Assembly: GCA_041492185.1 (NCBI GenBank)
Contig: JBGPWL010000010.1
Coordinates: 10,117 to 74,116, forward strand
DNA length: 64,000 nt
DNA from: Pyrinomonadaceae bacterium
GTDB taxonomy: Bacteria; Acidobacteriota; Blastocatellia; Pyrinomonadales; Pyrinomonadaceae
Direction of reading: 5' to 3'
A program made the position numbers and the translations under genes. Positions 6,687-62,252 of this stretch are shown here, piece by piece (within the stretch, counting starts at the first letter, position 1; the number at the start of each line of letters is the position of its first letter). The notes below the pieces were generated by a model. The model ran no database searches and had not been told where the DNA came from. It saw nothing but the letters and a program-made list of their open reading frames with translations.

Positions 6687-6758
6687 TTTGAAAAGTGGCA
6701 CGGGCGTCCCGTGAATCACGCGCAAGATGCGCGTGCTACAAGCGGACTTAACCAGCAC
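6687..6758 (+). repeat. dispersed ~72-nt double-hairpin repeat, copy 1
   Basis: tttgaaaagtggcacgggcgtcccgtgaatcacgcgcaagatgcgcgtgctacaagcggacttaaccagcac; near-identical to the reverse complement of 39534..39609. Confidence 0.7.
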
Positions 6759-27815: not shown

Positions 27816-28003
27816 AGGCCCGAAGGGCCGTCATTCAATAGCCGCGTCCGTAAGGGCGCGGTACCGGTATTGAGAAGAACATATTGAGCGCCGAAGGTGC
27901 GCCACGATGTGTGCCGGCCCTACGGGCCTCAAAAACCAAATACTCTGGCATCTCAATCCACGCCCTTACGGACGTGGCTATTGAATGACAGCCCTTCGGG
28001 CCT
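27816..28003. mobile_element. MITE-like element, 188 bp with 43-bp terminal inverted repeats
   Basis: aggcccgaagggccgtcattcaatagccgcgtccgtaagggcg versus the reverse complement of 27961..28003, 41/43 by hand; several short GC hairpins inside; no ORF. Confidence 0.6.
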
Positions 28004-39419: not shown

Positions 39420-39533
39420 TTGAAACGCCTCCGCAGAGTGGAAGAATTGTTCGTACGATAGCACAGGTTTCTCGACGCAGGCATTATCCTCCTGAAATGC
39501 GTTCGACACTCCACCTCGCAAGCGCAACCCCTG

Positions 39534-39609
39534 GTGCTGGTTCAGTTCGCTTGTGGCACGCGCATCTTGCGCGTGATTCACGGGCGGGACGCCCGTGCCA
39601 CTTTTCAAA
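39534..39609 (-). repeat. dispersed ~72-nt double-hairpin repeat, copy 2
   Basis: Reverse complement tttgaaaagtggcacgggcgtcccgcccgtgaatcacgcgcaagatgcgcgtgccacaagcgaactgaaccagcac. Confidence 0.7.
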
Positions 39610-39697
39610 TGAACCAGCACCCAACCCCTCGTTGGCTTGGACATTCGACGGCGAGGCGATGGATAATGCGTCAAATCAATTTACGAGGAGATAACTT

Positions 39698-46981: not shown

Positions 46982-47200
46982 ATGAATAAGCTGGTGGGAA
47001 TAAGTGTAGTTGTCGGCGGCGCTTGTCTGATTCTCGTCGGGCTGTTGATCTATTTAGGCGGCTTTAATTGGTTTGGCCGCTTGCCTGGGGACATCCGCTA
47101 CGAAAGCGCGCGCACGCAAGTTTACGTTCCCATCGTCTCGATGCTTTTGGTATCGCTGGCGCTAAGTCTGATCTTCTATTTGATTCGGCGGTTCTTCTAA
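46982..47200 (+). CDS. DUF2905 small membrane protein
   Basis: 72 aa; ...FGRLPGDIRYE...VYVPIVSMLLVSL... hallmark of DUF2905. Confidence 0.8.
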   Translation: MNKLVGISVVVGGACLILVGLLIYLGGFNWFGRLPGDIRYESARTQVYVPIVSMLLVSLALSLIFYLIRRFF

Positions 47201-47222
47201 GCTCACACGACTTCCGGCGCTC
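47197..47222 (+). repeat. 26-nt direct repeat, left copy (island boundary candidate)
   Basis: ctaagctcacacgacttccggcgctc; 24/26 identical to 56788..56813; overlaps the DUF2905 stop codon. Confidence 0.65.
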
Positions 47223-47310
47223 AAATCGCCGGGATGCTCCTTAACAGCAGCGCCAATACCGCGATCTGATTCAATTGTTTCTACGTCGGCAGAGCTTTCT
47301 TTGTATTCGC

Positions 47311-47460
47311 TTATGCCATGCGCCGGCGATTGAAAAGATTTATCACCAGAATCACGAGCGCAACTACGAGCAACAAGTGAATCAGGTTCGTGGTGACAAA
47401 GCCGCCAAGAAACCCAAGCATCCACAGCACCAACAACACTACTAGAATTGTCCACAACAT
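47311..47460 (-). CDS. lmo0937-family small membrane protein (49 aa; below the ORF-track cutoff)
   Basis: Hand translation MLWTILVVLLVLWMLGFLGGFVTTNLIHLLLVVALVILVINLFNRRRMA*; AGGAG 8 nt upstream of the ATG. Confidence 0.65.
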   Translation of the reverse strand: MLWTILVVLLVLWMLGFLGGFVTTNLIHLLLVVALVILVINLFNRRRMA

Positions 47461-47543
47461 GATCGTCTCTCCTTAATCAAACTCCATCTGACCTTCTGAA
47501 TCTCCTTGAGACCCTTGTGTAAAGCTAGTGTGGGCTCCGGCCG

Positions 47544-47564
47544 CTGGGGCCGTCTGTGCGCTGG
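47544..47564. promoter_or_regulatory. Crp-box 1 (tctgtgcgctggagcacatat), upstream of crp paralog 1
   Basis: TGTG-N8-CACA palindrome; centre about 144 nt upstream of ATG 47698; overlaps a perfect 14-bp palindrome AGCACATATGTGCT (47556..47569) that adds a third half-site. Confidence 0.6.
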
Positions 47565-47697
47565 AGCACATATGTGCTAACATTTGTGTTCAGGCCATTA
47601 GCGTTGTCGTTGCCTCTGACGAAAACTCTTTACATCGCGGAAGAGTCCGAAATCCGTTCTGGCTTTTTCAGCGGCGGCGGCGGCATGGAGGGTTCAC

Positions 47698-48411
47698 ATG
47701 TCTGTCTCAATAAACCCTGTTCCCCCAAGGGGAAACCGCTTGCTCGGGAAACTTCCGGACGAGGAGTATGAACGCCTGCTGCCAAAACTTCAGGAAGTCT
47801 CTTTTTCCCTCGGTGAAGTTGTATATGAATTCGGCGGACATTTGGATTATGTCTTTTTCCCTACAACAGCAATCGTCTCTCTGCTCTACACCATGGAAAA
47901 CGGCACGAGCGCCGAAATGGGCTTGACGGGTAACGATGGTGTGGTGGGGATTGCCCTCTTCATGGGCGGAGGCACCATGCCCAACCGTGCCGTCGTGCAG
48001 AGTGCCGGCAGGGCCCTGAGGATGAAGGCAAAGGTGCTGCAAGATGAATTCGCGATGGGCGGCAAATTCCAACACTGGCTGCTGCGCTACACGCAAGCAC
48101 TCATTACCCAAATCTCACAGACAGCCGTTTGCAACCGGCTGCACTCGGTTGAAGAGCAACTTTGCCGCTGGCTGTTGTTAAGCCACGACCGGGTTCCGTC
48201 GGACGAGTTGATCATGACGCAGGAACTGATCGCCGATATGTTGGGTGTCCGCCGCGAAGGCGTGACCGTGGCCGCCGGTCGCTTGCAAGATGTTGGAGCG
48301 ATTAGCTACGTCCGCGGCCACATCAAGATTCTCGACCGCCAAAAATTGGAAGAAACCGTCTGCGAATGTTACCGAGTTGTCAAAAACGAGTTTGACCGCT
48401 TGCTCGGATAG
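47698..48411 (+). CDS. Crp/Fnr family transcriptional regulator (paralog 1)
   Basis: 237 aa; cNMP-binding-type beta-roll plus C-terminal HTH (ELIADMLGVRREGVTVAAGRLQ). Confidence 0.85.
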   Translation: MSVSINPVPPRGNRLLGKLPDEEYERLLPKLQEVSFSLGEVVYEFGGHLDYVFFPTTAIVSLLYTMENGTSAEMGLTGNDGVVGIALFMGGGTMPNRAVVQSAGRALRMKAKVLQDEFAMGGKFQHWLLRYTQALITQISQTAVCNRLHSVEEQLCRWLLLSHDRVPSDELIMTQELIADMLGVRREGVTVAAGRLQDVGAISYVRGHIKILDRQKLEETVCECYRVVKNEFDRLLG

Positions 48412-48418
48412 ATACCAA

Positions 48419-48513
48419 GGCAAAAGTAAAAAGGTAAAAGGCAAAAAGGAAGGGCGAATCAATCAACGGGCCGTTGGTTGTCGCCCTTCTCACTTTTCCT
48501 TTCTACTTTTGCC
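48419..48513 (+). terminator. long imperfect hairpin just after the crp paralog 1 stop
   Basis: Arms ggcaaaagta...gaagggcga / tcgcccttc...tacttttgcc built from A-rich heptamer-like units; inner hairpin CAACGG-GC-CGTTG. Confidence 0.45.
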
Positions 48514-48702
48514 CTGCTTCCAATGTGCGATAACGCAAGGACACTCGCTCTTTCGAGTGGTATAGTCTCAGGACGGCTGATGATGAACCGTTGCGTTATC
48601 AAGAGCGTGGGGCCGCGGAAGGATTAACAGCGAAACAACAGGGTGTGGTTGCTGCATTTTGCGTTTCGGCTAGACGCCCTCTAACGCGTTAGGAAACAAC
48701 TT

Positions 48703-49188
48703 ATGAAACTAACAAACATGGCTGCACTCTTCGCTCTGATAGTTATGATCTGTAGCGCGCCAATCGTCGCACAACGCACGACCCGACCTTCCGCGGCGGT
48801 TCGATCTCCTGAAGTCGTGCTTAGAGAATTCTACAAGTGGTATATCCATGCCGGGAGCCATGACATAGATCCACTCAAGACCGACAAGGCTACTTTTAGG
48901 AAGTACGTCAGCGCGAGGTTCATTCGTGAAATTGAAAGAAACGAAAGACTGCCCGAAGGTGAAGGTTTCGATGCAGATTATTTTCTGCAAACGCAAGACC
49001 CGCTTCCCTCTTCCGATGCAAACAATGAAGCGGAGTGGCTAAAGAGTATCTCGGTATCGAGAGTCGCAGTCAAAGGAACAACAGCCACGGCGATTGTCAC
49101 TTTTTTCGCTGGGTATCCGAAGGTGAAGGTGAGCCTCATACAAGAAGGTGGCGTCTGGAAGATTAATCACGTAGCGGACGCACACTGA
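48703..49188 (+). CDS. secreted DUF3828-like protein
   Basis: 161 aa; signal peptide; ...LREFYKWYI...FDADYFLQTQD... pattern of DUF3828. Confidence 0.6.
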   Translation: MKLTNMAALFALIVMICSAPIVAQRTTRPSAAVRSPEVVLREFYKWYIHAGSHDIDPLKTDKATFRKYVSARFIREIERNERLPEGEGFDADYFLQTQDPLPSSDANNEAEWLKSISVSRVAVKGTTATAIVTFFAGYPKVKVSLIQEGGVWKINHVADAH

Positions 49189-49289
49189 TACGAATCCTTG
49201 CTGGTCAATGAGTCCTGATAAATTCAGCTATGCGGCAGATCATTTCACTGCGGGTTGGTGAATTGCATAATTCGGAAAGGAAAAGATTC

Positions 49290-49757
49290 ATGAAGAATGT
49301 GCTTATGTTCGTTATGCCTTTAGTATTCCTTTGCACACCTTCACTGGCATCACCTTCGCAGAACCAGGACACCACCGTTATTGATAAGTTCATCTCGAAG
49401 CAGGCCACTCAGGAAGGCGGCGACGAGGACGCAGAAGCGAGAAAGGTGGCGGAGGGGGACCTCAACCGCGATGGCACCTCCGACCTCGCAGTCTTATACA
49501 CGATTGAGGGTCAGAACGGGACAAACAACTATGTGCAATACCTGGCCGTATTCGTTCGAGTCAAAGGGCGCCTTCTTCCAGTTACACACGCCGCAGTTGG
49601 CGGCAAGTCTTATCGGGCGGTTGAGCTGGAGTCAATCAGCAACAGCGTAATCCTGTTAAAGACACTTAAGTATGCAGCGAAGGACGCGGCGTGCTGCCCG
49701 AGCAAGAAAGGGACGGCTCGATACGCGCTGGTCAACCGCAGGCTCAAGGAGCTATAG
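49290..49757 (+). CDS. secreted hypothetical protein
   Basis: ORF 49230.. trimmed to ATG 49290; signal peptide MKNVLMFVMPLVFLCTPSLA; DLNRDGTSDLAV (FG-GAP-like) segment. Confidence 0.6.
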   Translation: MKNVLMFVMPLVFLCTPSLASPSQNQDTTVIDKFISKQATQEGGDEDAEARKVAEGDLNRDGTSDLAVLYTIEGQNGTNNYVQYLAVFVRVKGRLLPVTHAAVGGKSYRAVELESISNSVILLKTLKYAAKDAACCPSKKGTARYALVNRRLKEL

Positions 49758-49954
49758 GGTCCGTTCCCCAGCCACAACGAGTCATGAGACCGGGAATCCT
49801 GTCAATCGAGCGCAGAGGAACGACGGTGACGATGGCGTCATCGCGCGCAGGAAGTTGGCGACCATCGTTCTGGTGAGAAGAAGCAACACGATTTATCCGT
49901 ATCATCGACAAGATGCCAAAAGCATCAGGCGACGGTAGTGGAATTCTTACTGAC

Positions 49955-50671
49955 CTACTCAGGCAGAAAGCTATCGTATTCCTCTTTGGTGATTCTGTAG
50001 CATTGACAGACGATCGCCTCCAGCTTTGCCGGCTGGAGGATCGTAAGGATGCCGCGACTGTAGCTAATCAATTTCTCACGTTGTAGATTGCCAGCAGCTT
50101 TGTTTACGCCTTCGCGTCGCACGCCCAGCATGCTGGACAAGAATTCCTGGGTGAGGCGAAACTTCTCCGCTTCCATCCCGTCGCGGGTCGTCAGCAGCCA
50201 CCGTGCCAAGCGGGCATCTATTGAGTGGAAGCGGTTGCACACAGCTGCTTGGGCTGTTTGCGTCAATCGTGAGTGCGTGTATCGTCGCAGCAGGCGCGGC
50301 AACCCTCCTCCGTTTTCGCATTCCTTTCGTAAGGCCGTCGCCTTCATTCTCAGGGCCACACCCGCACCTTGCACGACGGCGCGATTACGTGATGTCTTTA
50401 CGCCCATGAATACGGGGAGGCCGACCATACCCTCGCGGCCCACCATGCCAACCTCGAGATTGGTTCCCTCGCCTTCAGTTGCGAGCAGAGACACAACGCC
50501 ACTCGTCGGGAAATAGACGTGCCGGATGATGTCGCCCGGTTCGTATACGGCTGACCCAAAAGTCAGGTTTGTCAGCTCCAACTTAGTGAGCAGATGCTGA
50601 TATTCCTTTCTGGGCAGTTTGGCGAGAAGCCGATTGGAAACCGGCACCGATCGATTTGTGGCTGGAAGCAT
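49955..50671 (-). CDS. Crp/Fnr family transcriptional regulator (paralog 2)
   Basis: ORF 49955..50743 trimmed to ATG 50671 so the N-terminus (MLPATNRSVPVSNRLLAKLP) aligns with paralog 1 (MSVSINPVPPRGNRLLGKLP); HTH MLGVRREGVNKAAGNLQ. Confidence 0.85.
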   Translation of the reverse strand: MLPATNRSVPVSNRLLAKLPRKEYQHLLTKLELTNLTFGSAVYEPGDIIRHVYFPTSGVVSLLATEGEGTNLEVGMVGREGMVGLPVFMGVKTSRNRAVVQGAGVALRMKATALRKECENGGGLPRLLRRYTHSRLTQTAQAAVCNRFHSIDARLARWLLTTRDGMEAEKFRLTQEFLSSMLGVRREGVNKAAGNLQREKLISYSRGILTILQPAKLEAIVCQCYRITKEEYDSFLPE

Positions 50672-50811
50672 CGAGGGTTTTCCTTCTTCCGGTTGCTTGG
50701 CGCCAAGACAACAAACGGCACAAGAATGGGGTTGCCAGCCCAATCCAAGTGTCTAAAGATGATTTGTCTAACGAACGCTGCGGTATGTATACGACCCAAA
50801 GGCCTGGGCCG

Positions 50812-50832
50812 TATGTGCGCTAGCGCGCATAT
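50812..50832. promoter_or_regulatory. Crp-box 2 (tatgtgcgctagcgcgcatat), upstream of crp paralog 2
   Basis: Centre about 151 nt upstream of ATG 50671 (minus strand); followed by the GCGCATATGCGC palindrome, giving a third half-site as in box 1. Confidence 0.6.
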
Positions 50833-50903
50833 GCGCACTTTTCACAAACCAAACAAGGGCGGTCTCTTTGGTCTGGTTGGAACCTACATCAACGGGTGTG
50901 TTG

Positions 50904-51170
50904 TTACCTCAGGCCGAAACCCCTCCGGCGAAAGAGCGCGTGATAGACGATCAAAAACACTACGGCGCCCGTCACGGCGACGAGCAGGCTATAGAGATTC
51001 AGACCTGTCACACCAGTTGCTCCAAACAGATTGAATAGAAAGCCGCCGACGATCGCACCGACAACTCCTAAGAGGACGTCGCGAACCAGGCCTTCACCCG
51101 TCTTGTTAACAATCTTGCTTCCGATGTAACCAGCGACCAGACCGAGCACGATCCAGGCGACAAAAGACAT
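50904..51170 (-). CDS. GlsB/YeaQ/YmgE family stress-response membrane protein
   Basis: ORF trimmed to ATG 51170; MSFVAWIVLGLVAGYIGSKIV...LLGVVGAIVGGFLF typical of transglycosylase-associated (YeaQ) family. Confidence 0.8.
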   Translation of the reverse strand: MSFVAWIVLGLVAGYIGSKIVNKTGEGLVRDVLLGVVGAIVGGFLFNLFGATGVTGLNLYSLLVAVTGAVVFLIVYHALFRRRGFGLR

Positions 51171-51384
51171 CGCTGAACTTTCCTGCCGGTTGGATATCAA
51201 CATACCGAACTGTGTTACCTCGATGATTGACATTTCACTTCTCCTTCTTTTTTGAGTTCTCTAGTCGTCTCTTGGAAAACATCAGACGGCACAAGAAGGA
51301 GGTTGCTGGCCTGATCCGCAGTGTCGATAGGTGATTTGTCTAAAGAACGACTGAAGCGAAGGATACAACTCAAAAGAACGGCGG

Positions 51385-51405
51385 TCTGTGCGCTAGAACA
51401 CATAT
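51385..51405. promoter_or_regulatory. Crp-box 3 (tctgtgcgctagaacacatat)
   Basis: In the divergent region between the glsB-like gene (minus) and the Gly/Arg/His-rich gene (plus). Confidence 0.55.
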
Positions 51406-51499
51406 AGAGGAAGTGAGGAAAGAAACGGGAGCATCCTCTCAGCCAGGCAGGCGGTCGTACTCGTCTTAAGCGTTTCGCTCGCGATTTATCCTCGCCCCA

Positions 51500-51520
51500 A
51501 TATGTGTGTTAGCGCACATA
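51500..51520. promoter_or_regulatory. Crp-box 4 (atatgtgtgttagcgcacata)
   Basis: Centre 54 nt upstream of ATG 51564; TAGAGT -10-like hexamer starts ~31 nt downstream of the centre (class II-like geometry). Confidence 0.6.
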
Positions 51521-51563
51521 CACCTCAAGCCGCAGGGATTAGAGTCAGCGCCAAGGAGTGAAT

Positions 51564-51842
51564 ATGAAACGAAAAACAATGCAGCTTTTGATGGGGACAG
51601 CGATGGCAATATCCTTAGCGTGTGCCTCGCTGGATGTGATCGCTCAACAGAATGTCAATTCCAGTAAAGGGCAGATGAAGGAAGGCGGCAGAGAGGTTGG
51701 CAGAGCCGGTCGAGGCGTGGGGCGACATGTGAAGCATGGCCGGATAGTGCGCGGTGGCAAACACTTTGGACGACACATGGGGCGTGCCGGTAGGCACTTC
51801 GGCCGCGGGACCAAGCATGCCGTCAAGCATGCAATATCCTAA
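51564..51842 (+). CDS. small secreted Gly/Arg/His-rich basic protein
   Basis: ATG 51564 with AAGGAG upstream; signal peptide, then repeated G-R-x-x-G-R-H units. Confidence 0.6.
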   Translation: MKRKTMQLLMGTAMAISLACASLDVIAQQNVNSSKGQMKEGGREVGRAGRGVGRHVKHGRIVRGGKHFGRHMGRAGRHFGRGTKHAVKHAIS

Positions 51843-52025
51843 GACGAACTTCCTTTCATAACTGAGTGCTGTTACATCTGTGTTGATTGCTCTCAGAGAC
51901 CACTCTTGCGTCAGAAATCGGCAATGGCAGTCGACCGCCTGTGCGCACATAAAGCAGAAATGAAGCAGTACGTTTAATAACGCTTCTTTGACGACCCTGG
52001 GAACCCACAGCCCGTCTTGTTTCTA

Positions 52026-52046
52026 TATGTGCGCAAACGCACATAC
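52026..52046. promoter_or_regulatory. Crp-box 5 (tatgtgcgcaaacgcacatac)
   Basis: 73 nt upstream of a 25-codon ORF (52109..52186) that has an AGGAGG Shine-Dalgarno. Confidence 0.55.
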
Positions 52047-52289
52047 ACGACACTTTAATCGGTCTAAGGTAGCGCCCATTAGTGACATCCCGTAATCAGG
52101 AGGCGACCATGCCAAAGCCTGACGTAGATGGCGTGGTAGCAAGGATCACGCAATTCGTTTTTCCTGCGGAGCGCGTCGCTGCTTAGTCAATCCGCGCTGG
52201 ATGTGGAAGTCAACAACTGTCCGCTTCCAACACCTCCCCTCCCGCGCCAACTGCGCAACGAAGATGCTCAAAAACATTTAGAATGATCT

Positions 52290-52310
52290 ATATGTGTGTT
52301 AGAGCACATA
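52290..52310. promoter_or_regulatory. Crp-box 6 (atatgtgtgttagagcacata)
   Basis: About 228 nt upstream of ATG 52528 (R/D/N-rich protein). Confidence 0.55.
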
Positions 52311-52527
52311 CAAACGCTCGCGGGTAGTTTATGTTGCCGTACTGGCAATTTACTGTGAAAGCATACCAGGCAGTCTCGGATTCAGAGATACATTTGATTG
52401 CGCTCTGATGCTGGCGGCGAACGCGTCGGGCAGAAGAGACACAGGTGATTGAAGCGCGGGTTTCAGCGAGATTCAAACCCACCCTTCGCAAGGTCGAGTT
52501 GCATGTACCTGCAACAAGGAGTTGGTT

Positions 52528-53298
52528 ATGAAAAGAAATCAATGGCTAGGCAGAATCGGGATCGCCGCGCTGGCGTTTTTGCTGCTGCTTGGCGCGGGAA
52601 TCGTCTTGAGCACGACAGCTCGGGCTCAAAATCAAGATGATCGTGATGCCCAAAGCCGTCGGGATCAAAACAACCGTGATCGCAACGATCAATATCGCCG
52701 CGACCGCAACTGGGATCAGTACGGCAACTACGGCGGCTCTGTCGAGTTGCGCGAAACCGCTCTGAACGCTGGCTACAACGAAGGTATCAGGGAAGGCAGC
52801 AATGATCGCCAGAACGGGAGGCACTCTAACTATCGAGACTCTAGTGCCTACCGGAACGCCACGAAAGACTACCGCTCACGTCTCGGCGACCGCGAGTTGT
52901 ACCGCCGATACTTCCGTGACGCATTCGAGAGCGGATACAACGCCGACGGTTATGACCAGGACAGTCGCGATCGAGACAACCGTGATCGTGATCGAAACAA
53001 CCGTGACCGCAACAACAACGGCGACCGAAATCGCCGCGGCCGCAACTGGGACGGCTACTCCAACTACGGCGGCTCCTTCGAGCTTCGCCAAACGGCACTG
53101 AACGCGGGCTACAACGAAGGCATCAAGGAAGGTCGCAAGGACCGCAATCGGCGCAACCGCTCTGATTACCGTGACAAGGGCGCCTACCAGAAAGCCACGC
53201 AAGACTACAGCTCAAGGCTCGGCGACCGCGAGCTATACCGACGTTACTACCAAGAGGCCTACCCTAATGGTTATGACGCCGGCATCAATGGTTACTAG
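52528..53298 (+). CDS. secreted Arg/Asp/Asn-rich protein with internal duplication
   Basis: ATG 52528 with AAGGAG 5 nt upstream; signal/TM; two ~95-aa units (NWD.Y.NYGGS.ELR.TALNAGYNEGI.EG...YR...AY..AT.DY.SRLGDRELYRRY). Confidence 0.7.
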   Translation: MKRNQWLGRIGIAALAFLLLLGAGIVLSTTARAQNQDDRDAQSRRDQNNRDRNDQYRRDRNWDQYGNYGGSVELRETALNAGYNEGIREGSNDRQNGRHSNYRDSSAYRNATKDYRSRLGDRELYRRYFRDAFESGYNADGYDQDSRDRDNRDRDRNNRDRNNNGDRNRRGRNWDGYSNYGGSFELRQTALNAGYNEGIKEGRKDRNRRNRSDYRDKGAYQKATQDYSSRLGDRELYRRYYQEAYPNGYDAGINGY

Positions 53299-53392
53299 AA
53301 GTTTCTTGAAGGCCCTCACCTCTTTTCAAGTCTTCGTTTTCGAATCCAGCTTGCGCTTCGCGGCGCATGCATTCAAAGGAAGTCAGTAAGAA

Positions 53393-53620
53393 GTGAACAC
53401 AAAGACATCAGTCAGACTCATCAAAAAAGGGGAACGCAAAGGGCGAAAGATCCGAGCTAAGGTCCAACATCGAACTGGCCCAAAACAGTGGTCCACAGCA
53501 GTTCGCTCGTGGGTCGTTGAGTCTCAAGAACGCGATCGCAGCGAATCGCTCCCAGCTTTCGACAGTTTGTTCGAGGATGCACTGACGCCGCCGGAACGCG
53601 CAGATGGAAGCGTTGTCTAG
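53393..53620 (+). CDS. small basic hypothetical protein
   Basis: 75-aa ORF from GTG; no family recognised. Confidence 0.4.
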   Translation: MNTKTSVRLIKKGERKGRKIRAKVQHRTGPKQWSTAVRSWVVESQERDRSESLPAFDSLFEDALTPPERADGSVV

Positions 53621-53681
53621 CGATCAACGAACGGCAACGCTCAAACGATTGGAGAGGGCTACACTCGCCCAAAGGAGAAAT

Positions 53682-53876
53682 ATGACACCAGCTAAACCAG
53701 GAGTGGTCAAAGACGAGCTGACAACCCATGACCGAACGCAGGCGGCGATAGAGGCTTATCGGGCCAAGTCCGATGAACGAACTAGCCCGGGACCAAATCC
53801 GGTTCGTGAGAGGCGGTATCTCGACGTGGATGGAGTTCTCGCGCGCTCGTCGTTGCCAGAAGCGTTAAGGCTATAG
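53682..53876 (+). CDS. small hypothetical protein
   Basis: ORF 53604.. trimmed to ATG 53682, which has AAGGAG 5 nt upstream. Confidence 0.45.
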   Translation: MTPAKPGVVKDELTTHDRTQAAIEAYRAKSDERTSPGPNPVRERRYLDVDGVLARSSLPEALRL

Positions 53877-54026
53877 TCACATATTGGACAAGTACTACCT
53901 TCCCGCCAGAGTTGGCGTGAAGCCCCCGGCATGGTGGTGTCCTGATTTATTTCTCTGTGCGATCTCCGCGTCCCCTGTGTCTTGTGGTGAGTGGTTATGG
54001 ATGATCCCGGAGTTCAGATTCGCTGA

Positions 54027-54425
54027 TCAGTGTCCGACCGGGATCCGTTGAAAGCGTGTCTTGCCTTCCACATCTTCCCATGAGATGTCGAGCACATAAG
54101 GACAAGCCTTGCCTGTGATGATCTTGAGTCGTTCCAACTGATCGTGATCGATCTCGCTCGGTCTGCCATTGATCCAGGTTCGGTGGGCCAGGACTGCTCG
54201 CTCTTTGGGTAGGATGGCTTTTACCGCGTCGAATCGAATGTGAGCTTGTGACGGCCCTCCGCCGAAAGTTTCTTCATCTTTCAGGAAGATAGTTAGAATC
54301 TCCATCGACTTAAGGGTTTGGTCACCGGTGTTCGTCAACTCTAAGAGAACCTTCGGTCCGGTATCGATTAATCTGAAGCTGAGAGGTTTGGCTGTATTGC
54401 TATTGTTGCTCATAGTCTTTGTCAC
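54027..54425 (-). CDS. hypothetical protein co-directional with the receiver-domain gene
   Basis: 132-aa ORF 45 nt downstream of the receiver gene; no family recognised. Confidence 0.55.
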   Translation of the reverse strand: MTKTMSNNSNTAKPLSFRLIDTGPKVLLELTNTGDQTLKSMEILTIFLKDEETFGGGPSQAHIRFDAVKAILPKERAVLAHRTWINGRPSEIDHDQLERLKIITGKACPYVLDISWEDVEGKTRFQRIPVGH

Positions 54426-54439
54426 GCTTGTCCGAAACC

Positions 54440-54510
54440 ACCTGCGGTAGCGGGTGGGTAATTGTCATCACTACGCGGCCAGCGGAGCAAAACCACCCGC
54501 TACCGCAGGT
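54440..54510 (-). repeat. perfect 18-bp inverted repeat straddling the receiver-gene stop codon
   Basis: acctgcggtagcgggtgg (54440..54457) and ccacccgctaccgcaggt (54493..54510), 35-nt spacer. Confidence 0.6.
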
Positions 54511-54902
54511 AGTTCCGTCTTTAGCAGCAGGCGAGTGATAAGATTTCTCAACTGGTTGAAGTTGTCGGGGCGAGTGACATGTACATTTCGACCGATGGCG
54601 ACTTCATCACCTTCGCCGACCTCTGCAACGCAAAAGAGCACAACTGGCACACTCTCTCCCAGGCCCGCGCGTTCGCGGATACGGCACGCGGTAACTATTA
54701 TGTCGGCTAGTATGCCGGGTAAACTCACGAGAATCAGATCGGGACGCCTGCGTAGTGCGCTCGTGATTGCGCTGGGTTCATCTCTCATTGCCTCCACACG
54801 GTAACCGTCCACTTTGAGCAATTTCTCAATGCCGTCGCGAGTCTCCTCGACATCCTCCACTACCAGGATGATCAGGGCCGTGTCATTTTCTATGTTCATC
54901 AA
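54471..54902 (-). CDS. stand-alone receiver (REC) domain protein lacking the phospho-acceptor Asp
   Basis: ILVVEDVEETR (beta1 acidic pair) is present, but the beta3 position reads PDLILVSLPG (Ser where Asp is expected); K-P-F position reads RPDNF. Confidence 0.65.
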   Translation of the reverse strand: MMNIENDTALIILVVEDVEETRDGIEKLLKVDGYRVEAMRDEPSAITSALRRRPDLILVSLPGILADIIVTACRIRERAGLGESVPVVLFCVAEVGEGDEVAIGRNVHVTRPDNFNQLRNLITRLLLKTELPAVAGGFAPLAA

Positions 54903-54995
54903 ACGCTTTCTTGTTCGCTTACGGCCAGGTTTTGTTTATCTTCGAGTACATGACCACTAGCGAACCTTTAACAATAGCGACAACTAAGCGGCTTG

Positions 54996-55016
54996 TCCGT
55001 GCGCCAGCGCACATAT
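54996..55016. promoter_or_regulatory. Crp-box 7 (tccgtgcgccagcgcacatat)
   Basis: In the divergent region between the receiver-domain gene (about 104 nt to its ATG) and the Met-rich protein gene. Confidence 0.55.
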
Positions 55017-55036
55017 TGCCTAACTTTTCGGCGTGA

Positions 55037-55114
55037 GATCGATAAATCCCAATCATAAGCGGCCTAGCGCACAGACGGCGCCGCGTGCTTAGCCTAACCT
55101 TGTGTTCTGTCAGC
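55037..55114 (+). repeat. 78-nt direct repeat, copy A
   Basis: 68/78 identical, ungapped, to 56253..56330 (hand count). Confidence 0.7.
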
Positions 55115-55224
55115 AAAGGAATCCGAGGCTAAGACCACTAAAATAGTCAAAGATTCGTTAACTTTTTCGAGGATCTGAAGGCGGAATTCCGCTCTGAAAA
55201 ATGAAGAGGGAGAAAGGTGAGAAT

Positions 55225-55830
55225 ATGAAAATAAACACACGCGCTCTGTTTTTAGCTATAGCCATTATGCTGATCGTATCAATTCCGTCCGTCGCATGGG
55301 CGCAACACAAGCACGGTGGACAGAAAAAGGCGGGCATGTCGGGCATGAAGATGGACATGCCAATGATGATGATGAAATCGCCGCATCACAAGTTGATGAT
55401 GGCCTACATGAAGAGCATGTCTACGTTCGCTACAACACTTCGTGATCAGGCAATGAAGCCAGAAGCCATGGACGTTGAAGTTGCGCGCGCAACTGTCGCG
55501 GAGCTGAGACACAATCTCGATGCGATGGAAGCTCTCCACCAAAAACACATGCAGTCGATGAGCGCAGAGATGCAATCAAAGATGAAGACGATGATGGAGA
55601 AGATGGATAAGAACGGCGCGAAGCTAAAGGATCAGGTGACCGCGCTCGAGACCGATGTGCAAGCCGATAAGCCAGACTCTGCGCAAGTGACGGCACATGC
55701 CAACGCTCTGCTAAAGCATCTCGGAATGATGTCGAAGATGCATGGTGGCAGCAAAGCAGGGAAGAAGAAGATGGCGATGAAGAAGGGTATGAAGATGGAT
55801 CCCAAGATGGACATGAAGAAGAAGATGTAA
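55225..55830 (+). CDS. secreted Met/His/Lys-rich protein
   Basis: ORF 55201.. trimmed to ATG 55225; signal peptide; MKMDMPMMMMKSPHHKLMMAYMKSM and C-terminal KKKMAMKKGMKMDPKMDMKKKM. Confidence 0.7.
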   Translation: MKINTRALFLAIAIMLIVSIPSVAWAQHKHGGQKKAGMSGMKMDMPMMMMKSPHHKLMMAYMKSMSTFATTLRDQAMKPEAMDVEVARATVAELRHNLDAMEALHQKHMQSMSAEMQSKMKTMMEKMDKNGAKLKDQVTALETDVQADKPDSAQVTAHANALLKHLGMMSKMHGGSKAGKKKMAMKKGMKMDPKMDMKKKM

Positions 55831-55943
55831 TCGTTCCCGTGTAGTTGTTGGCTGTTGTTCTGGAAATAGGTTTGGTAATGCACCCGCTGTGTCGTGATCT
55901 AATGCGCGCGGCGGAAGCAATTCCAAATAGGAGGTAAGAATTC

Positions 55944-56198
55944 ATGCCTGAGACAAATCGAACCCGGGTGGCACTGGGTGCAATCATCGTGGTGGTGCTC
56001 ATAGTTTCGCTCCTCTCTTGGAGCGGGATGATGGGCGGTTTGGGTTGGACGAATATGAGCGGCGGGATGATGGGCGGATGGGGCTCGAATGCGAACCCCG
56101 GCAGGTCTGTGCTGACGATCGGCGTTTGGGTACTTATCGTCGTCGGCATCGGAGGGATTATCCTTTGGGCCATTCGTAAGCCCGGCGTACACCGATGA
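55944..56198 (+). CDS. small two-TM membrane protein with Gly/Met-rich loop
   Basis: 84 aa; AGGAGG 8 nt upstream; loop SGMMGGLGWTNMSGGMMGGWG between two TM helices. Confidence 0.65.
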   Translation: MPETNRTRVALGAIIVVVLIVSLLSWSGMMGGLGWTNMSGGMMGGWGSNANPGRSVLTIGVWVLIVVGIGGIILWAIRKPGVHR

Positions 56199-56252
56199 TG
56201 CAAGGTGTGCGATCGTCTTCATGCCCCATGTCTCCTGTGAATTCCGGTACGC

Positions 56253-56330
56253 GATCGATTAATCCAACTCATAAGCGGCCTAGTGCACAGACGGCTCCGC
56301 AGGCTTAGCCTAACCTTCTGTTCTGGCAGG
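56253..56330 (+). repeat. 78-nt direct repeat, copy B
   Basis: Ends 10 nt before ATG 56340. Confidence 0.7.
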
Positions 56331-56339
56331 ACCGACCTT

Positions 56340-56684
56340 ATGAAACTTGTCTTTGTAATCATTGTCTTAGAGAACCTGGTCATTGCTTTGATATTGGCGG
56401 CGGTTTTTGCGCATTCCTGGAGGCGGAAATTCAACTTGCAGCGCCCATTCTCATTGATTGATGCCGGCGACACTCCATCCATCCACTTGGCGACACCGGC
56501 CCTGTTTGATCCGGTACGTTGGACACGACTAAATCCATGGCTGCTCGAAGGCCAACCTGATGACCGGACACCGATGATCGGTTCTGATGGTGAGATCAGC
56601 GGATCAGCATCGGCGCGCCGGTCGTCAGCGAGGCGGTTTCATCAGATTAACTACAAAGCATGGTCAAAAGAGCGGCACAACTGA
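56340..56684 (+). CDS. hypothetical membrane-anchored protein
   Basis: ORF 56283.. trimmed to ATG 56340 because the upstream codons lie in a 78-nt non-coding repeat; N-terminal TM MKLVFVIIVLENLVIALILAAVF. Confidence 0.5.
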   Translation: MKLVFVIIVLENLVIALILAAVFAHSWRRKFNLQRPFSLIDAGDTPSIHLATPALFDPVRWTRLNPWLLEGQPDDRTPMIGSDGEISGSASARRSSARRFHQINYKAWSKERHN

Positions 56685-56787
56685 GAAGTAATCGAAGCGG
56701 TGAAGAAACGGTAGGGTAATCATCAGCATGACTAGTGGCGGATAAGATTAGGTCTTACGCGAGTCTGCGTTTCGATGGGCGGTCCTG

Positions 56788-56813
56788 CTAAGCTCACATC
56801 ACTTCCGGCGCTC
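56788..56813 (+). repeat. 26-nt direct repeat, right copy (island boundary candidate)
   Basis: ctaagctcacatcacttccggcgctc; overlaps the stop codon and last 6 codons of the MFS gene (minus strand). Confidence 0.65.
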
Positions 56814-58059
56814 CACCATCCGAATATTCTCCCGCGTGCGCGCGCGCGAAATAAACGCCGAGCAGAAAAGCTGCCAGCATGATCCCCGCCGCGGTCCAGA
56901 ACGTTGCGAAGATCGAATGGTCGCTCATGTTATGAAAAGCTCCGTCAAAACCTTTGGCAGCAACCGCGCTGTAGATCAAGATCGCCTGCACTGACGGTCC
57001 AACGGCCCGCGCCAAACTCGCCACCGATTGCGTGACGCCCAGCACCACGCCCTGTTCGGCTTCGCTCACGCTTTTTGATGCGAGGCTCGTCAACGATGGC
57101 GTTGCCAGCGAGTTGCCCACCGCGAACGCGCCGCCGACCGCAAGCAGCGTCAGCAATCCAGTGTGCGCTCCGGTAAAAGGAATCAGGAACAGACTCAGAG
57201 AAAACAGCGACGCGCCGATTAGCACCAGCGGCAATTCGCCAAATCGTCTCACCAATTTTCCGATCAGCCCGCCCTGAATCATCGCGCCAATTATTCCGAC
57301 GTACGCAAACAGGTAACCCGTGTGCGCCGCGTCATAGCCAAACCGGAACATCGTGAAGAGGGAGAACGTGGTTGTCATTATCGAGAACGCGACGATGAAT
57401 AAAAAGTAGATCGTGAGCACAAATCCGAGTTTCGGCTGTTTGAGAGATCTGACAACCTCTTTCCAGTCACGACCACCGGCGGCAGAAACGCGCGCGGGAT
57501 GATCCGGCGTCACGGTTTCGGGCAGAGTGAAATAAAGCAGAATGGCATTTGCAAACGCCAGACCGGCAGCAAAAAAGAACGGCACGCCGATGCCCCAATG
57601 ACTGAGCACGCCGCCAATCGCCGGACCAAAAACGAAGCCGAGACCAAACGCGGCGCCTACCAAACCCATGCCCTTCGCGCGATCCGCTTTTGTAGTCGAG
57701 TCGGCGATGTAGGCTTGCGCGGTTGAAATGTTGCCGCCGGTGATACCGTCCAGGATGCGGCCGACAAAGAGCATCCACAGCGTCGTCGCAAAGCCGAGAA
57801 TCAGAAACGAGATGCCCGTGCCGATGATGCTAACGAGCAGCACCGGACGCCGCCCATGTTTATCTGAAAGCCTTCCCAGGATGGGAGCGAAGATCAACTG
57901 CATGACGGAGTAGGAAGCAAAGAGCAATCCTACGTCGCGCGGCGTGGCATTGAACCTCGTGCCTTCGACGTAGAACGGCAGCACGGGCATGACGATGCCA
58001 AACCCGACCAGGTCGATAAAGATCGTGATGAAGATGACCAGTAGCGGCGAACGCTTCAT
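56794..58059 (-). CDS. MFS transporter (TetA/drug-efflux-like, 12 TM)
   Basis: 421 aa; motif A-like GRLSDKHGRRPVLL; 12 predicted hydrophobic segments. Confidence 0.85.
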   Translation of the reverse strand: MKRSPLLVIFITIFIDLVGFGIVMPVLPFYVEGTRFNATPRDVGLLFASYSVMQLIFAPILGRLSDKHGRRPVLLVSIIGTGISFLILGFATTLWMLFVGRILDGITGGNISTAQAYIADSTTKADRAKGMGLVGAAFGLGFVFGPAIGGVLSHWGIGVPFFFAAGLAFANAILLYFTLPETVTPDHPARVSAAGGRDWKEVVRSLKQPKLGFVLTIYFLFIVAFSIMTTTFSLFTMFRFGYDAAHTGYLFAYVGIIGAMIQGGLIGKLVRRFGELPLVLIGASLFSLSLFLIPFTGAHTGLLTLLAVGGAFAVGNSLATPSLTSLASKSVSEAEQGVVLGVTQSVASLARAVGPSVQAILIYSAVAAKGFDGAFHNMSDHSIFATFWTAAGIMLAAFLLGVYFARAHAGEYSDGGAPEVM

Positions 58060-60107: not shown

Positions 60108-60881
60108 ATGGAACTTCAACATATCAAGTTCGAGATCGACGATCGCGTGGCGCGCATCACTCTCGCTCGGCCGCCGCTTAATATCCTGAACATCGAGATG
60201 ATGCAGGAGATTGGATTGGCGCTCGACGATCTCGTCAGCCATCGCGAAGTGGTGGCGATCGTTTTCGACGCCCCACCGGATGCGCGCGCCTTCAGCGCCG
60301 GCGTCGCGGTCGAAGAGCACGTTGAGGAAACAATCTATCAGATGCTCGATTCGTTCCACGCCATCTTTCGCACCTTGACGCAACTCGCAAAGCCGACGAT
60401 TGCCGTGGTTGATGGCGCAGCGCTGGGTGGCGGATGCGAACTGGTGGCGGGCTGCGATATTGTCATCGCGAGCGATCGCGCGCGGTTCGGCCAACCAGAG
60501 ATCAAGCTCGGCGTGTTTCCGCCGGTGGCTTGCGTGCTGTTGCCACTGATCATCGGCGACAAACGCGCGCGCGAACTCGTGTTGACTGGTGAGATGATTG
60601 ACGCTCCTGAAGCCGCGCGTCTTGGCCTGGTGAATTACGTCGTGCAGGCCGACCGTTTGCAGCAAAAGACGGAAGAGATACTATCGAAGCTGCGCGAGTT
60701 CTCCGGCGTCGCGTTGGAAGCAACTCGGCGCGCGCTCGACCTGGGCCGCGGGCGTTCGCTCGATAGCGTGCTGGCCGAAATAGAGGACATGTATCTGAAC
60801 GAGCTGATGAAGACCGAAGATGCCAACGAAGGCATTAAGTCGTTTATGGAAAAGCGAAAGCCGGCGTGGCGGAACCGGTAA
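60108..60881 (+). CDS. enoyl-CoA hydratase/isomerase family protein
   Basis: 257 aa; crotonase motifs FSAGVAVEE and VDGAALGGGCELVAGCDI. Confidence 0.85.
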   Translation: MELQHIKFEIDDRVARITLARPPLNILNIEMMQEIGLALDDLVSHREVVAIVFDAPPDARAFSAGVAVEEHVEETIYQMLDSFHAIFRTLTQLAKPTIAVVDGAALGGGCELVAGCDIVIASDRARFGQPEIKLGVFPPVACVLLPLIIGDKRARELVLTGEMIDAPEAARLGLVNYVVQADRLQQKTEEILSKLREFSGVALEATRRALDLGRGRSLDSVLAEIEDMYLNELMKTEDANEGIKSFMEKRKPAWRNR

Positions 60882-60883
60882 AA

Positions 60884-61364
60884 TTTTCCATTTATCATTT
60901 GACATTTTTCATTTGTCATTTGAAGGCACGACACCCCGCTTGTATGGAAAAAGTAGCAGTAGCGCGAGTCGCTCAATCGCAAGCAGACGAACTTGAGGAA
61001 CGCTTGATTGACTTTGCAGTACGCATCGTCAAGCTTTCGGCCGGTCTGCCGAAAAATCCCGCCGGGAAGCATGTCGCTGGACAGGTTTTGCGATCCGGGA
61101 CGTCTCCCGCGCCGAATTATGGCGAAGCGAGAGGAGCTGAAAGCCATGCCGATTTCGTTCACAAGCTGCGTATCGTTCTTAAGGAGTTGAATGAGACATC
61201 TATCTGGCTGCGAGTAATTGAACGCAGTCAGATTCTAAAGAAGGAACTCCTTGCGGACATTATTGAGGAAAACCGGGAACTGTGCAGGATTTTCATTGCA
61301 TCACTAAAAACCGCTCGTGCTGGAAAAAATGATAAATGAGAAATGTCAAATGACAAATGGAAAA
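60884..61364 (+). mobile_element. inverted-repeat-flanked four-helix-bundle gene cassette
   Basis: Left arm 60884..60922 and right arm 61327..61364 are reverse complements (35/38 by hand); both are made of NCATTTN heptamers. Confidence 0.55.
60944..61339 (+). CDS. four-helix-bundle protein (23S rRNA IVS protein / Avd-like family)
   Basis: ORF 60866.. trimmed to ATG 60944; ...RLIDFAVRIVKL...GKHVAGQVLRSGTSPAPNYGEA...FVHKLRIVLKELNETSIWLRV... hallmark of the TIGR02436-type family. Confidence 0.8.
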   Translation: MEKVAVARVAQSQADELEERLIDFAVRIVKLSAGLPKNPAGKHVAGQVLRSGTSPAPNYGEARGAESHADFVHKLRIVLKELNETSIWLRVIERSQILKKELLADIIEENRELCRIFIASLKTARAGKNDK

Positions 61365-62252
61365 TGGCTTCAGTCCTGGAGCCGTCGTCTCTTTGTCCTG
61401 CTCGTCGCGCTCGCGCTCCTCGTTCCCGCATTCGGCGTACTGGCCCAAAGGCGAAAGCAAAGCGGATCGCATCCGAGCCGCCCGCGTGAAACTCTAACCG
61501 TCGAAGAGCGCGAACTAGTCGAGGAAGCGATTGACGTTGTCTGTTCCGAAAGAGCGCGCGACGACAAAGGCAGCGCGCCCATTGACGATATGCAGAAGCG
61601 CCCGTCGCTGCCGTTGCGCGCCCCCGAAGTAATCGCGGGCGCAGAGCGCGCCCAACGCCTTCTGGGTCCGGCCAAGAGCCTTGTCATAGTCGCGCTGCGC
61701 CGTCTCTCGGATGAATACAAAATCAGCAGCGACCGGTATCACGCCGCAAGAATCAGCCGGGCGATCGCGCGCGTGCAGGCCGTCAATCGTGTCAGGCCGG
61801 ACGTTGAAGCGCGCGATAACGCGTCTGTCTATCTCAAGAGCCCGCACGCGATCACCTTCGGCACAATTTTTCTGGCGGGTCTGCCTTCCGACGAAGGGAT
61901 GCTCAGCGTGCTGGCGCATGAATTGGTCCACATCGCCGATGGCGACACGGACACTTTGCGACGGCTGTTTCAGGCCGTCGGTAATCGCGCTTCAAGGTTG
62001 ACCGGGTTGCGCATACGCGACCAACGCGCCGAGGAATTGACCTGCGATCTGGTGGGCGAAGTAGCCGCGCAGTCGCTCATTTCCAGCACGCCTAACTATG
62101 AACCGGTGCCGCGGCGACTGGCGCGATCCCTCGAACACAATTGCGTGGACGAAGACGAAGCCGACGAGGATCATCTTTCCCCGCGAAACACCATTCGCGC
62201 GCTGCTGGCTCTCGATCCCGCGCTCAGACGGGGGCTGGTTTACGGCAAGTAG
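61350..62252 (+). CDS. putative secreted zinc metalloprotease (HExxH)
   Basis: ORF 61317..; signal-like N-terminus; LAHELVHIADGD motif; all candidate ATGs (61317/61329/61350) lie inside the right inverted repeat of the upstream cassette. Confidence 0.55.
   Translation: MTNGKWLQSWSRRLFVLLVALALLVPAFGVLAQRRKQSGSHPSRPRETLTVEERELVEEAIDVVCSERARDDKGSAPIDDMQKRPSLPLRAPEVIAGAERAQRLLGPAKSLVIVALRRLSDEYKISSDRYHAARISRAIARVQAVNRVRPDVEARDNASVYLKSPHAITFGTIFLAGLPSDEGMLSVLAHELVHIADGDTDTLRRLFQAVGNRASRLTGLRIRDQRAEELTCDLVGEVAAQSLISSTPNYEPVPRRLARSLEHNCVDEDEADEDHLSPRNTIRALLALDPALRRGLVYGK

Follow-up and report, generated by a model that had tools for sequence, protein, structure and literature searches.

A Crp/Fnr regulon block inserted between duplicated convergent gene ends in a Pyrinomonadaceae genome

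The sequence analysed here, a stretch of 64,000 nucleotides from contig JBGPWL010000010.1 of a Pyrinomonadaceae assembly (GCA_041492185.1, Acidobacteriota; hereafter the window), contains a cluster of mostly small genes with two regulators of the Crp/Fnr family and Crp-type palindromes, lying between a DUF2905 gene and a convergent gene for a transporter of the major facilitator superfamily (MFS). The initial annotation of this DNA had noted that a 26-nt direct repeat brackets the cluster, and had proposed a mobile genomic island that arrived by site-specific integration. Comparison with related Pyrinomonadaceae loci identifies the 9,565 bp between the repeats as a lineage-specific insertion with target duplication, since about 90 of them retain the flanking gene order without the block and the two closest relatives have a single junction. 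The inserted genes are a native cluster of the family, and the way in which they reached this site is weighed below.

A gene cluster between two copies of a gene junction

Both flanking genes are intact and meet the cluster with their 3' ends (Table 1). A DUF2905 orthologue occupies the same place, beside a DUF3298 gene, in about 30 relatives, and homologues of the MFS transporter share 75-94.5% identity with it (75-89% outside its own 90% protein cluster), an identical protein being also encoded on a contig of the metagenome-assembled genome GCA_041496485.1. By this protein the window is assigned to the Pyrinomonadaceae. The repeat overlaps the ends of both genes, as had been described: the left copy includes the DUF2905 stop codon (TAA, 47198-47200), and the right copy includes the MFS stop codon (TGA on the minus strand, 56794-56796) together with the last five codons, reading APEVM*.

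A search of the whole window recovered the two copies as annotated, in direct orientation and with 24/26 identical positions. X-drop extension lengthens the repeat to 36 nt at 89% identity (47187-47222 and 56778-56813), and the weaker similarity that had been noticed about 15 nt further left is real, continuing at 12/18 to approximately 47179 and 56770; the longest uninterrupted identical blocks measure 11 and 13 nt, 9.6 kb apart. The window holds these two copies only, at up to three and even at up to six mismatches, and none was found at up to five mismatches in 2.1 Mb of related loci. Shuffled sequence is expected to give no such match in the search at up to three mismatches, and we estimate the chance of any 24/26 pair among the ~2x10^9 position pairs at ~1e-3. 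A pattern scan of Joint Genome Institute (JGI) metagenome contigs also returned no match, in a collection evidently without the source sample, the source contig itself being absent from the matches. Inspected by eye, with no folding run, the 26-mer has no obvious palindromic stem, and terminator-like hairpins or a promoter role at either repeat or border gave no signal above shuffled sequences. The repeats are insertion scars and, as far as the window, the related loci and the metagenome scan show, not a multi-copy repetitive extragenic palindromic (REP) element, the alternative that the initial annotation had itself named: there are only two copies in 64 kb and their sequence consists of the coding ends of two genes.

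Each copy thus joins the end of a live gene to a remnant of the other. The MFS remnant in the left copy ends in ...EVV* and the live gene in ...EVM*; as the closest MFS relatives end in ...AEVV, the left fossil retains the ancestral valine, and the live gene now has methionine. The decayed DUF2905 remnant at the right end of the insert resembles the DUF2905 end of the window itself more than it does the spacer of a related locus (L098). A 97-aa open reading frame (ORF) overlapping the left repeat (47162-47455, minus strand) was rejected as spurious: it belongs to no family and matches relatives only in a frame other than that of their annotated gene. Assemblies of this same DNA are annotated inconsistently, one JGI assembly calling the 97-aa ORF (L184, 591-884) and others the 49-aa DUF5670 gene.

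The limits of the Crp-box regulon block can be set at 47223-56787. All exact TGTG-N8-CACA palindromes of the window (n = 5) lie between the repeat copies, in agreement with the earlier observation that the Crp boxes are confined there. Among the proteins encoded in the block, rep258 is rich in Asp, Arg and Asn and secreted, with homologues of 56-70% identity in the Crp1 clusters of relatives.

Sequence has also been duplicated inside the block. The rep258 gene contains an internal duplication of ~260 nt (52686-52945 and 53022-53281, 74%). Two pairs of upstream regions are likewise duplicated, one of 88 nt at 84% (55026-55113 and 56242-56329) and another consisting of modules of ~40 and ~30 nt at 79-87% (50705-50777 and 51276-51349). 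These duplicated upstream regions include Crp-box half-sites, and to judge from such copies the regulon seems to have grown by the copying of promoter modules.

Table 1. Features of the inserted block and its borders (window coordinates)
Feature	Position	Strand	Evidence or remarks
DUF2905 gene, 72 aa, intact	46982-47200	+	Pfam PF11146, E = 1.4e-18; last codon and stop at left edge of left repeat
Left 26-nt repeat copy, CTAAGCTCACACGACTTCCGGCGCTC	47197-47222	+	Identical in 5 independent contigs
MFS C-terminus fossil in left copy, (G)APEVV*	47203-47222	-	Read from sequence; in MFS frame, outside any long ORF
Inserted block, 9,565 bp, 15 genes, all Crp-type palindromes of the window	47223-56787	.	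Absent at this site in relatives
DUF5670 / lmo0937-family small membrane protein, 49 aa, first insert gene	47311-47460	-	Pfam PF18919 (2.5e-11), NCBIfam NF033488; divergent from Crp1
Crp1, Crp/Fnr-family regulator, 237 aa	47698-48411	+	Pfam HTH_Crp_2 and cNMP_binding
DUF3828 protein	48703-49188	+	Domain search
Putative lipoprotein, 175 aa	49230-49757	+	Domain search
Crp2, second Crp/Fnr-family regulator	49955-50743	-	Domain search; 56-72% identical homologues in Crp1 clusters of relatives
Transglycosylase-associated (GlsB/YeaQ/YmgE-type) small membrane stress protein	50904-51233	-	Pfam PF04226, E = 2.2e-11
p94, small hypothetical protein	51558-51842	+	ORF
rep258, 258-aa internally repeated protein	52522-53298	+	ORF; homologues in clusters of relatives
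p75, small hypothetical protein	53393-53620	+	Homologues in clusters of relatives
p90, small hypothetical protein	53604-53876	+	ORF
p132 (132-aa hypothetical protein) and single-domain response regulator (143 aa)	54027-54902	-	Pair kept beside Crp1 in many relatives
Met/Lys-rich secreted protein	55201-55830	+	ORF
84-aa membrane protein	55944-56198	+	ORF
114-aa hypothetical protein, last insert gene	56340-56684	+	Homologues in Crp1 clusters of several relatives
Decayed fossil of last ~6 DUF2905 codons and stop (RRFF*-like) at right end of insert	56770-56791	+	16/22 in register, no gaps
Right 26-nt repeat copy, CTAAGCTCACATCACTTCCGGCGCTC	56788-56813	+	Identical in 3 independent contigs
DHA1-type MFS transporter gene, 421 aa, intact, ends ...GGAPEVM*	56794-58059	-	Pfam MFS_1, E = 6.8e-63

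The empty site in related genomes

A profile search with one genome per GTDB species yielded 80 loci, onto which the window proteins were mapped, and closer relatives were taken from 90% protein clusters, bringing the comparison to about 90 related Pyrinomonadaceae loci in all. In the 80 species loci the MFS gene is mostly followed by DUF2905, DUF3298 or p195 neighbours with a tricorn-like protease beyond, and in loci that extend far enough an M61 peptidase is found upstream. Island genes were found between the MFS gene and these left-hand neighbours in none of the 80 loci, nor in the additional relatives. A near-full-length DUF2905 gene is convergent with the MFS gene in 27 of the 80, and the gap from stop to stop is at most 121 nt in 14 of those 27. 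Three related loci (L098-L100) whose MFS protein is 94.5% identical to that of the window have the two genes convergent across a 30-nt spacer; BLAST homology between L098 and the window ends at 47196 and resumes at 56786, and homology with another locus (L004) resumes at 56791.

The closest relatives found, two short contigs from the European Nucleotide Archive (L181 and L182) with 85-91% nucleotide identity to the window flanks, carry the empty site itself. They have a single copy of the junction, ...CGGCGGTTCTTTTAGCTCACGC(T/C)ACTTCCGGAGCTCCTCCATCCGAATATTC..., in which the DUF2905 and MFS stop codons are one base apart. Such a site, with a DUF2905 gene convergent with the MFS gene around one copy of the 26-mer, had been predicted beforehand as a test of the insertion. 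Positions 1269-1508 of L181 align to 46982-47222 of the window and positions 1474-1579 to 56778-56884; 35 nt of the single L181 junction therefore match both window copies, which is direct evidence for target duplication and bears out the earlier suggestion that the repeats duplicate the 3' ends of two convergent genes. The two window copies are more similar to each other (24/26) than to the closest relative (~22/26) or to L098 (~15/26), and the junction is among the least conserved stretches of the neighbourhood, C-termini and spacers differing in nearly every species.

The insertion is younger than the split from the L181/L182 lineage, which corresponds to 10-15% nucleotide divergence, and older than the diversification of the sampled population, because all eight assembled junction contigs carry the block. 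The right junction occurs in three independent contigs and the left one in five contigs from five samples, all of them identical in sequence and in the integrated state; as both junctions are identical in independent assemblies, the arrangement is neither a chimera nor an assembly artefact.

The spot is variable across the family. In two loci (L026/L029, 11250-15800) it holds a different block of 4.5 kb, whose genes include one for an NRAMP-like transporter, between arrays of the heptamers CTGACTT/CTGACTC; when other inserts at the junction were examined for comparable target duplications, only this one scored, and its repeats are the CTGACTT arrays, not gene ends. In one lineage an Emfourin and M4 peptidase pair stands in place of DUF2905 (L084-L087, 11273-12835), and DUF2905 is missing altogether downstream of the MFS gene in L004/L094 and L088. 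The sequence GCTAAGTCAGATC in L004 was considered as a DUF2905 remnant and dropped, given that comparison with L098 identifies it as spacer downstream of the MFS gene. Several relatives (L007, L008, L027 and L060) carry, in a short spacer between convergent DUF2905 and MFS genes, one or two hairpin copies of a palindromic element of the type GTAGGACAGGCATTCCTGCCTGTCC, which in this family may serve as a bidirectional terminator or represent a REP-like element.

Composition, mobility genes and origin of the cargo

The lower guanine-cytosine (GC) content of the block, first judged by eye, was borne out by computation, although the effect is modest. The block has 52.7% GC and the rest of the window 55.7%, with a minimum of 54.2% among non-overlapping segments of the same size, and no other segment of the window deviates as much in tetranucleotide composition. 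Coding GC is 53.6% in the block and 56.4% in the flanking genes, and GC at third codon positions 61.3 and 66.3, respectively. Non-coding DNA makes up 31% of the block, at 50.7% GC, and accounts for part of the deficit.

No match to integrase, transposase, excisionase, relaxase or phage families was obtained for any tested ORF in Pfam, PHROGs or NCBIfam, in line with the earlier remark that no integrase or transposase is visible inside the block. The largest gap without an assigned gene in the block is 679 nt, and the gene map leaves no room for a recombinase. There are no tRNA genes in the window; an Rfam search of 44-60 kb returned only mir-3179, outside the island and at 28.5 bits against a gathering score of 90, which is noise. 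At the block ends, the best inverted match is 7 nt, below the mean of shuffled sequences, and terminal inverted repeats are thus absent. Remnants of integrative and conjugative or integrative and mobilizable elements were found neither in the block nor at this site in the loci retrieved from relatives. Among homologous Crp1 clusters of 23 relatives, nothing comparable to the bracketing direct repeats was detected, the few matches of 23-31 nt including a Crp box.

The cargo is a family-wide native gene cluster and does not look like foreign DNA. Hundreds of Pyrinomonadaceae proteins match Crp1 at 86-92% identity, which makes it more conserved than the flanking MFS transporter. In relatives, the conserved DUF5670-Crp1 pair is accompanied by homologues of Crp2, rep258, p75, the pair of p132 and response regulator, p133 and the last island gene, in clusters that usually adjoin groES-groEL (groESL), in other genomic neighbourhoods. 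The window cluster shares with the groESL-side clusters the same families and in part the same order, running from DUF5670-Crp1 through Crp2, then rep258 and p75, then p132 and the response regulator, to p133; in two relatives (L110 and L147) the cluster starts with DUF5670 and the homologue of the last island gene is the final mapped cluster gene, as in the window. The same type of palindromic box occurs in the relative L169, as the repeat AGGTCTGTGCGCTAACACACATA. Unlike those clusters, that of the window lacks groESL, lies in an unrelated conserved neighbourhood and has a duplicated target at both ends. The best DNA identity of any island segment to a related locus is ~85%, the flanks showing 75-91% to relatives. 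Within the window, neither the 47 kb on the left of the block nor the 7 kb on its right yielded a second copy of the cluster. A literature search for a published description of the regulon or island in Pyrinomonadaceae or Blastocatellia returned nothing relevant.

One relative's contig (JADMIO013028590.1, L169/L170) contains two Crp1 genes, each ~85% identical to that of the window, ~33 kb apart and oppositely oriented. Each of them is accompanied by a response regulator and p132 of its own, so that the cluster does undergo duplication in this family.

Other repeats and insertions lie in the window outside the block. Within 60866-61365, a gene of the 23S_rRNA_IVP / four-helix-bundle type (PF05635, JGI annotation of the same DNA) sits between A/T-rich inverted repeats of 39 nt (60883-60921 and 61327-61365, 92% complementary), its 5' end overlapping the left arm. 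In BLAST comparisons, L004 and L098 cease to match the window at about 60878 and match it again from about 61386-61401, a pattern that suggests another small insertion specific to the lineage, ~4 kb away from the island. A sequence of ~76 nt is present in two inverted copies 33 kb apart (6687-6758 and 39533-39621, 94-100% complementary), the latter itself part of a local palindrome, and may be a dispersed repeat of this genome. Finally, a pair of 46-nt inverted repeats, 93% complementary and 96 nt apart, occupies 27816-28003.

How the block may have been inserted

Different evolutionary scenarios might account for the block. The one that we favour, with a probability of roughly 0.6, is a one-off illegitimate insertion of the native cluster that duplicated its target in place and gave rise to a non-mobile block. 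A single event would have placed a 9.57-kb copy of the family's Crp/Fnr-controlled stress cluster, comprising two regulators, palindromic boxes and about 13 small target genes, between the DUF2905 and MFS stop codons, and would have duplicated the junction in place, with 26 nt nearly intact and ~36-44 nt traceable. Candidate routes are the repair of a staggered break, capture mediated by microhomology, or a template switch during replication with re-entry ~26-44 nt upstream, and the cluster could have been moved or copied within the genome or imported from a related one. As the junction was duplicated, both genes kept their native last codons and stops; after the insertion, each border gene faces island DNA and not the other gene, whose fossil lies just inside the border. 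This scenario needs no element functions, draws both repeat copies from the lineage's own junction, and agrees with the ancestral ...EVV* ending of the left copy and with the native cargo. The block is without machinery of its own and now behaves like ordinary chromosome. Identical blocks of 11 and 13 nt 9.6 kb apart are a poor substrate for spontaneous deletion, and the block should therefore be stable.

In common with illegitimate or microhomology-mediated insertions, the event appears as a single occurrence, involves no element enzyme and shows a short imperfect homology at the right joint, TTT(C)GAT..GGCGG. In homology-facilitated or double illegitimate recombination, as occurs in naturally transformable bacteria, and in template switching, the joint may come with a duplication or a deletion of recipient sequence. 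Documented illegitimate insertions are usually short patches or involve an anchoring homologous arm; work on SPDIR (short-patch double illegitimate recombination) reportedly concerns microindels, and we know of no described clean 9.6-kb insertion with a duplication of 26-44 nt.

Several points weigh against an illegitimate insertion. A target duplication of 26-44 nt is unusually long for such an event in bacteria, and this is the typical length of an att core; the nearly perfect 26 nt with a sharp right edge and a degenerate left extension are likewise att-like. Decay has gone further in the right fossil (6/18 differences) than in the left (2/22), which would not be expected if both had been neutral since one event, a difference that is not significant with so few sites. 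No recent donor locus was identified, none exceeding ~85% nucleotide identity to any island segment. Moreover, outside the 64-kb window the genome may hold an integrase that acts in trans, more copies of the 26-mer or another Crp1 cluster.

The att-like appearance of the repeats leads to the second scenario and main rival, a decayed site-specific island, which we regard as unlikely, albeit worth serious consideration. A tyrosine or serine recombinase would have integrated a circle whose attP site mimicked the DUF2905/MFS junction, the 26-mers being attL and attR, with the recombinase gene now lost or acting in trans and excision perhaps still possible. The block would then be comparable to cis-mobilizable elements (CIMEs), defined as elements without integration and transfer genes that keep attL and attR (PMC5704250), with which it shares the lack of an encoded recombinase. 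Direct repeats over two gene 3' ends with both reading frames restored, the core length, the sharp right edge and the one-sided degenerate extension, the clean empty site in relatives and the somewhat lower GC would all be accommodated. Like islands integrated at gene 3' ends and like CIMEs, the block is a discrete multi-gene unit, absent in relatives, flanked by direct repeats that duplicate gene 3' ends and leave the target genes intact, of slightly lower GC and without an encoded recombinase.

On the other hand, no integrase, excisionase, relaxase or other mobility remnant was found in the block, nor is there room for one in its gene map, and no cognate element was found at the site or with the repeat in relatives: no element with these genes occurs at the junction in the ~90 related loci, and the homologous clusters of 23 relatives have no comparable bracketing repeats. 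The target is a junction of two convergent protein genes and not a conserved tRNA or gene end as in integrase-type islands; being poorly conserved in relatives, with the 26-mer absent from 2.1 Mb of related DNA, it would make a poor integrase site. Since the two copies match each other at 24/26 and the nearest relative at only ~22/26, an attP copy would need to match the junction of this one lineage almost exactly. The cargo, finally, is the conserved native regulon of the family, unlike the accessory or foreign genes of integrase-type islands. Of the initial proposal, an insertion bounded by duplicated gene ends stands, while a mobile island placed by site-specific integration finds no recombinase, tRNA, inverted ends or cognate element and is at odds with the native cargo. 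Repeats over gene 3' ends, invoked as the classic signature of such integration, are indeed present, but the same pattern is expected from a one-off insertion with duplication in situ. Should the block excise, the junction of the circle (right end, 26-mer and left end) would read ...GGGCGGTCCTGCTAAGCTCACANNACTTCCGGCGCTCAAATCGCCGGG..., and also ...TTTCGATGGGCGGTCCTGCTAAGCTCACA[NN]ACTTCCGGCGCTCAAATCGCCGGGATGC..., and the restored empty site ...CGGCGGTTCTTCTAAGCTCACA[NN]ACTTCCGGCGCTCCACCATCCGAATATTC....

A multi-step or homology-driven origin is improbable. The cluster could have reached the site through a tandem duplication ending in the junction followed by a deletion, or through a Campbell-type single RecA crossover of a circle bearing the junction. 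By either route the direct repeats would stem, as they do here, from the lineage's own junction, and some relatives have two Crp1 clusters ~33 kb apart (L169/L170). However, two or three events would be needed against one, no second cluster copy lies within the window, and it is not obvious how a circle could acquire a copy of the junction. The identical blocks are only 11 and 13 nt, a length below that usually needed for efficient RecA recombination.

Transposable elements (insertion sequences, transposons and casposons) also leave an insert flanked by a direct duplication of the target. The block differs from them in the length of the duplication, 26-44 nt, and in having neither terminal inverted repeats nor a transposase or Cas1. 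Target-site duplications of these elements are typically of 2-15 nt. In the broad sense the block is a genomic island, that is, a lineage-specific block with direct repeats and an empty site in relatives; it falls outside integrase-type islands and CIMEs, transposons and REP elements.

We consider it a long shot that the Crp/Fnr cluster can relocate as a "regulon cassette" by means of a recombination system that acts in trans or has yet to be recognised. If true, such a cassette would combine long (26-44 nt) target duplications with preserved convergent gene ends and no element-encoded integrase, and would explain why the cluster differs in position among members of the family. Only if the long duplication were the signature of an unrecognised recombination system would a new mechanism be involved, and the odds of this appear equally slim.

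Two last scenarios have very little in their favour. Were the block ancestral at the site and lost in relatives by recombination between the repeats, the deletion would recreate the exact L181/L182 empty site, but the block is absent from all ~90 related loci, every outgroup included, the diverse junctions and spacers would require very many independent precise losses, and the cluster of relatives sits elsewhere, typically beside groESL, which makes this scenario extremely improbable. That the 26-mer is a REP-like element dispersed in the genome, or a product of chance or of faulty assembly, can practically be dismissed: the scan covered only part of the source genome, but the copy number in the window and in the related loci is as given above, the coding ends of two genes account for the whole sequence, the synteny breakpoints, defined independently, agree with the copies to the base, and both junctions recur in independent assemblies.

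The locus calls for caution in the prediction of genomic islands, in that a native, non-mobile insertion may also be marked by a dip in GC and by direct repeats that cover gene 3' ends; gene-end repeats plus a GC dip are not sufficient to call an integrative element. For the biology of the family, it provides a clean example of a whole regulon, with its regulators, operator boxes and targets, placed as a unit at a new chromosomal address in a poorly studied soil phylum, with the empty site kept in sister lineages and fossils of both target gene ends remaining.

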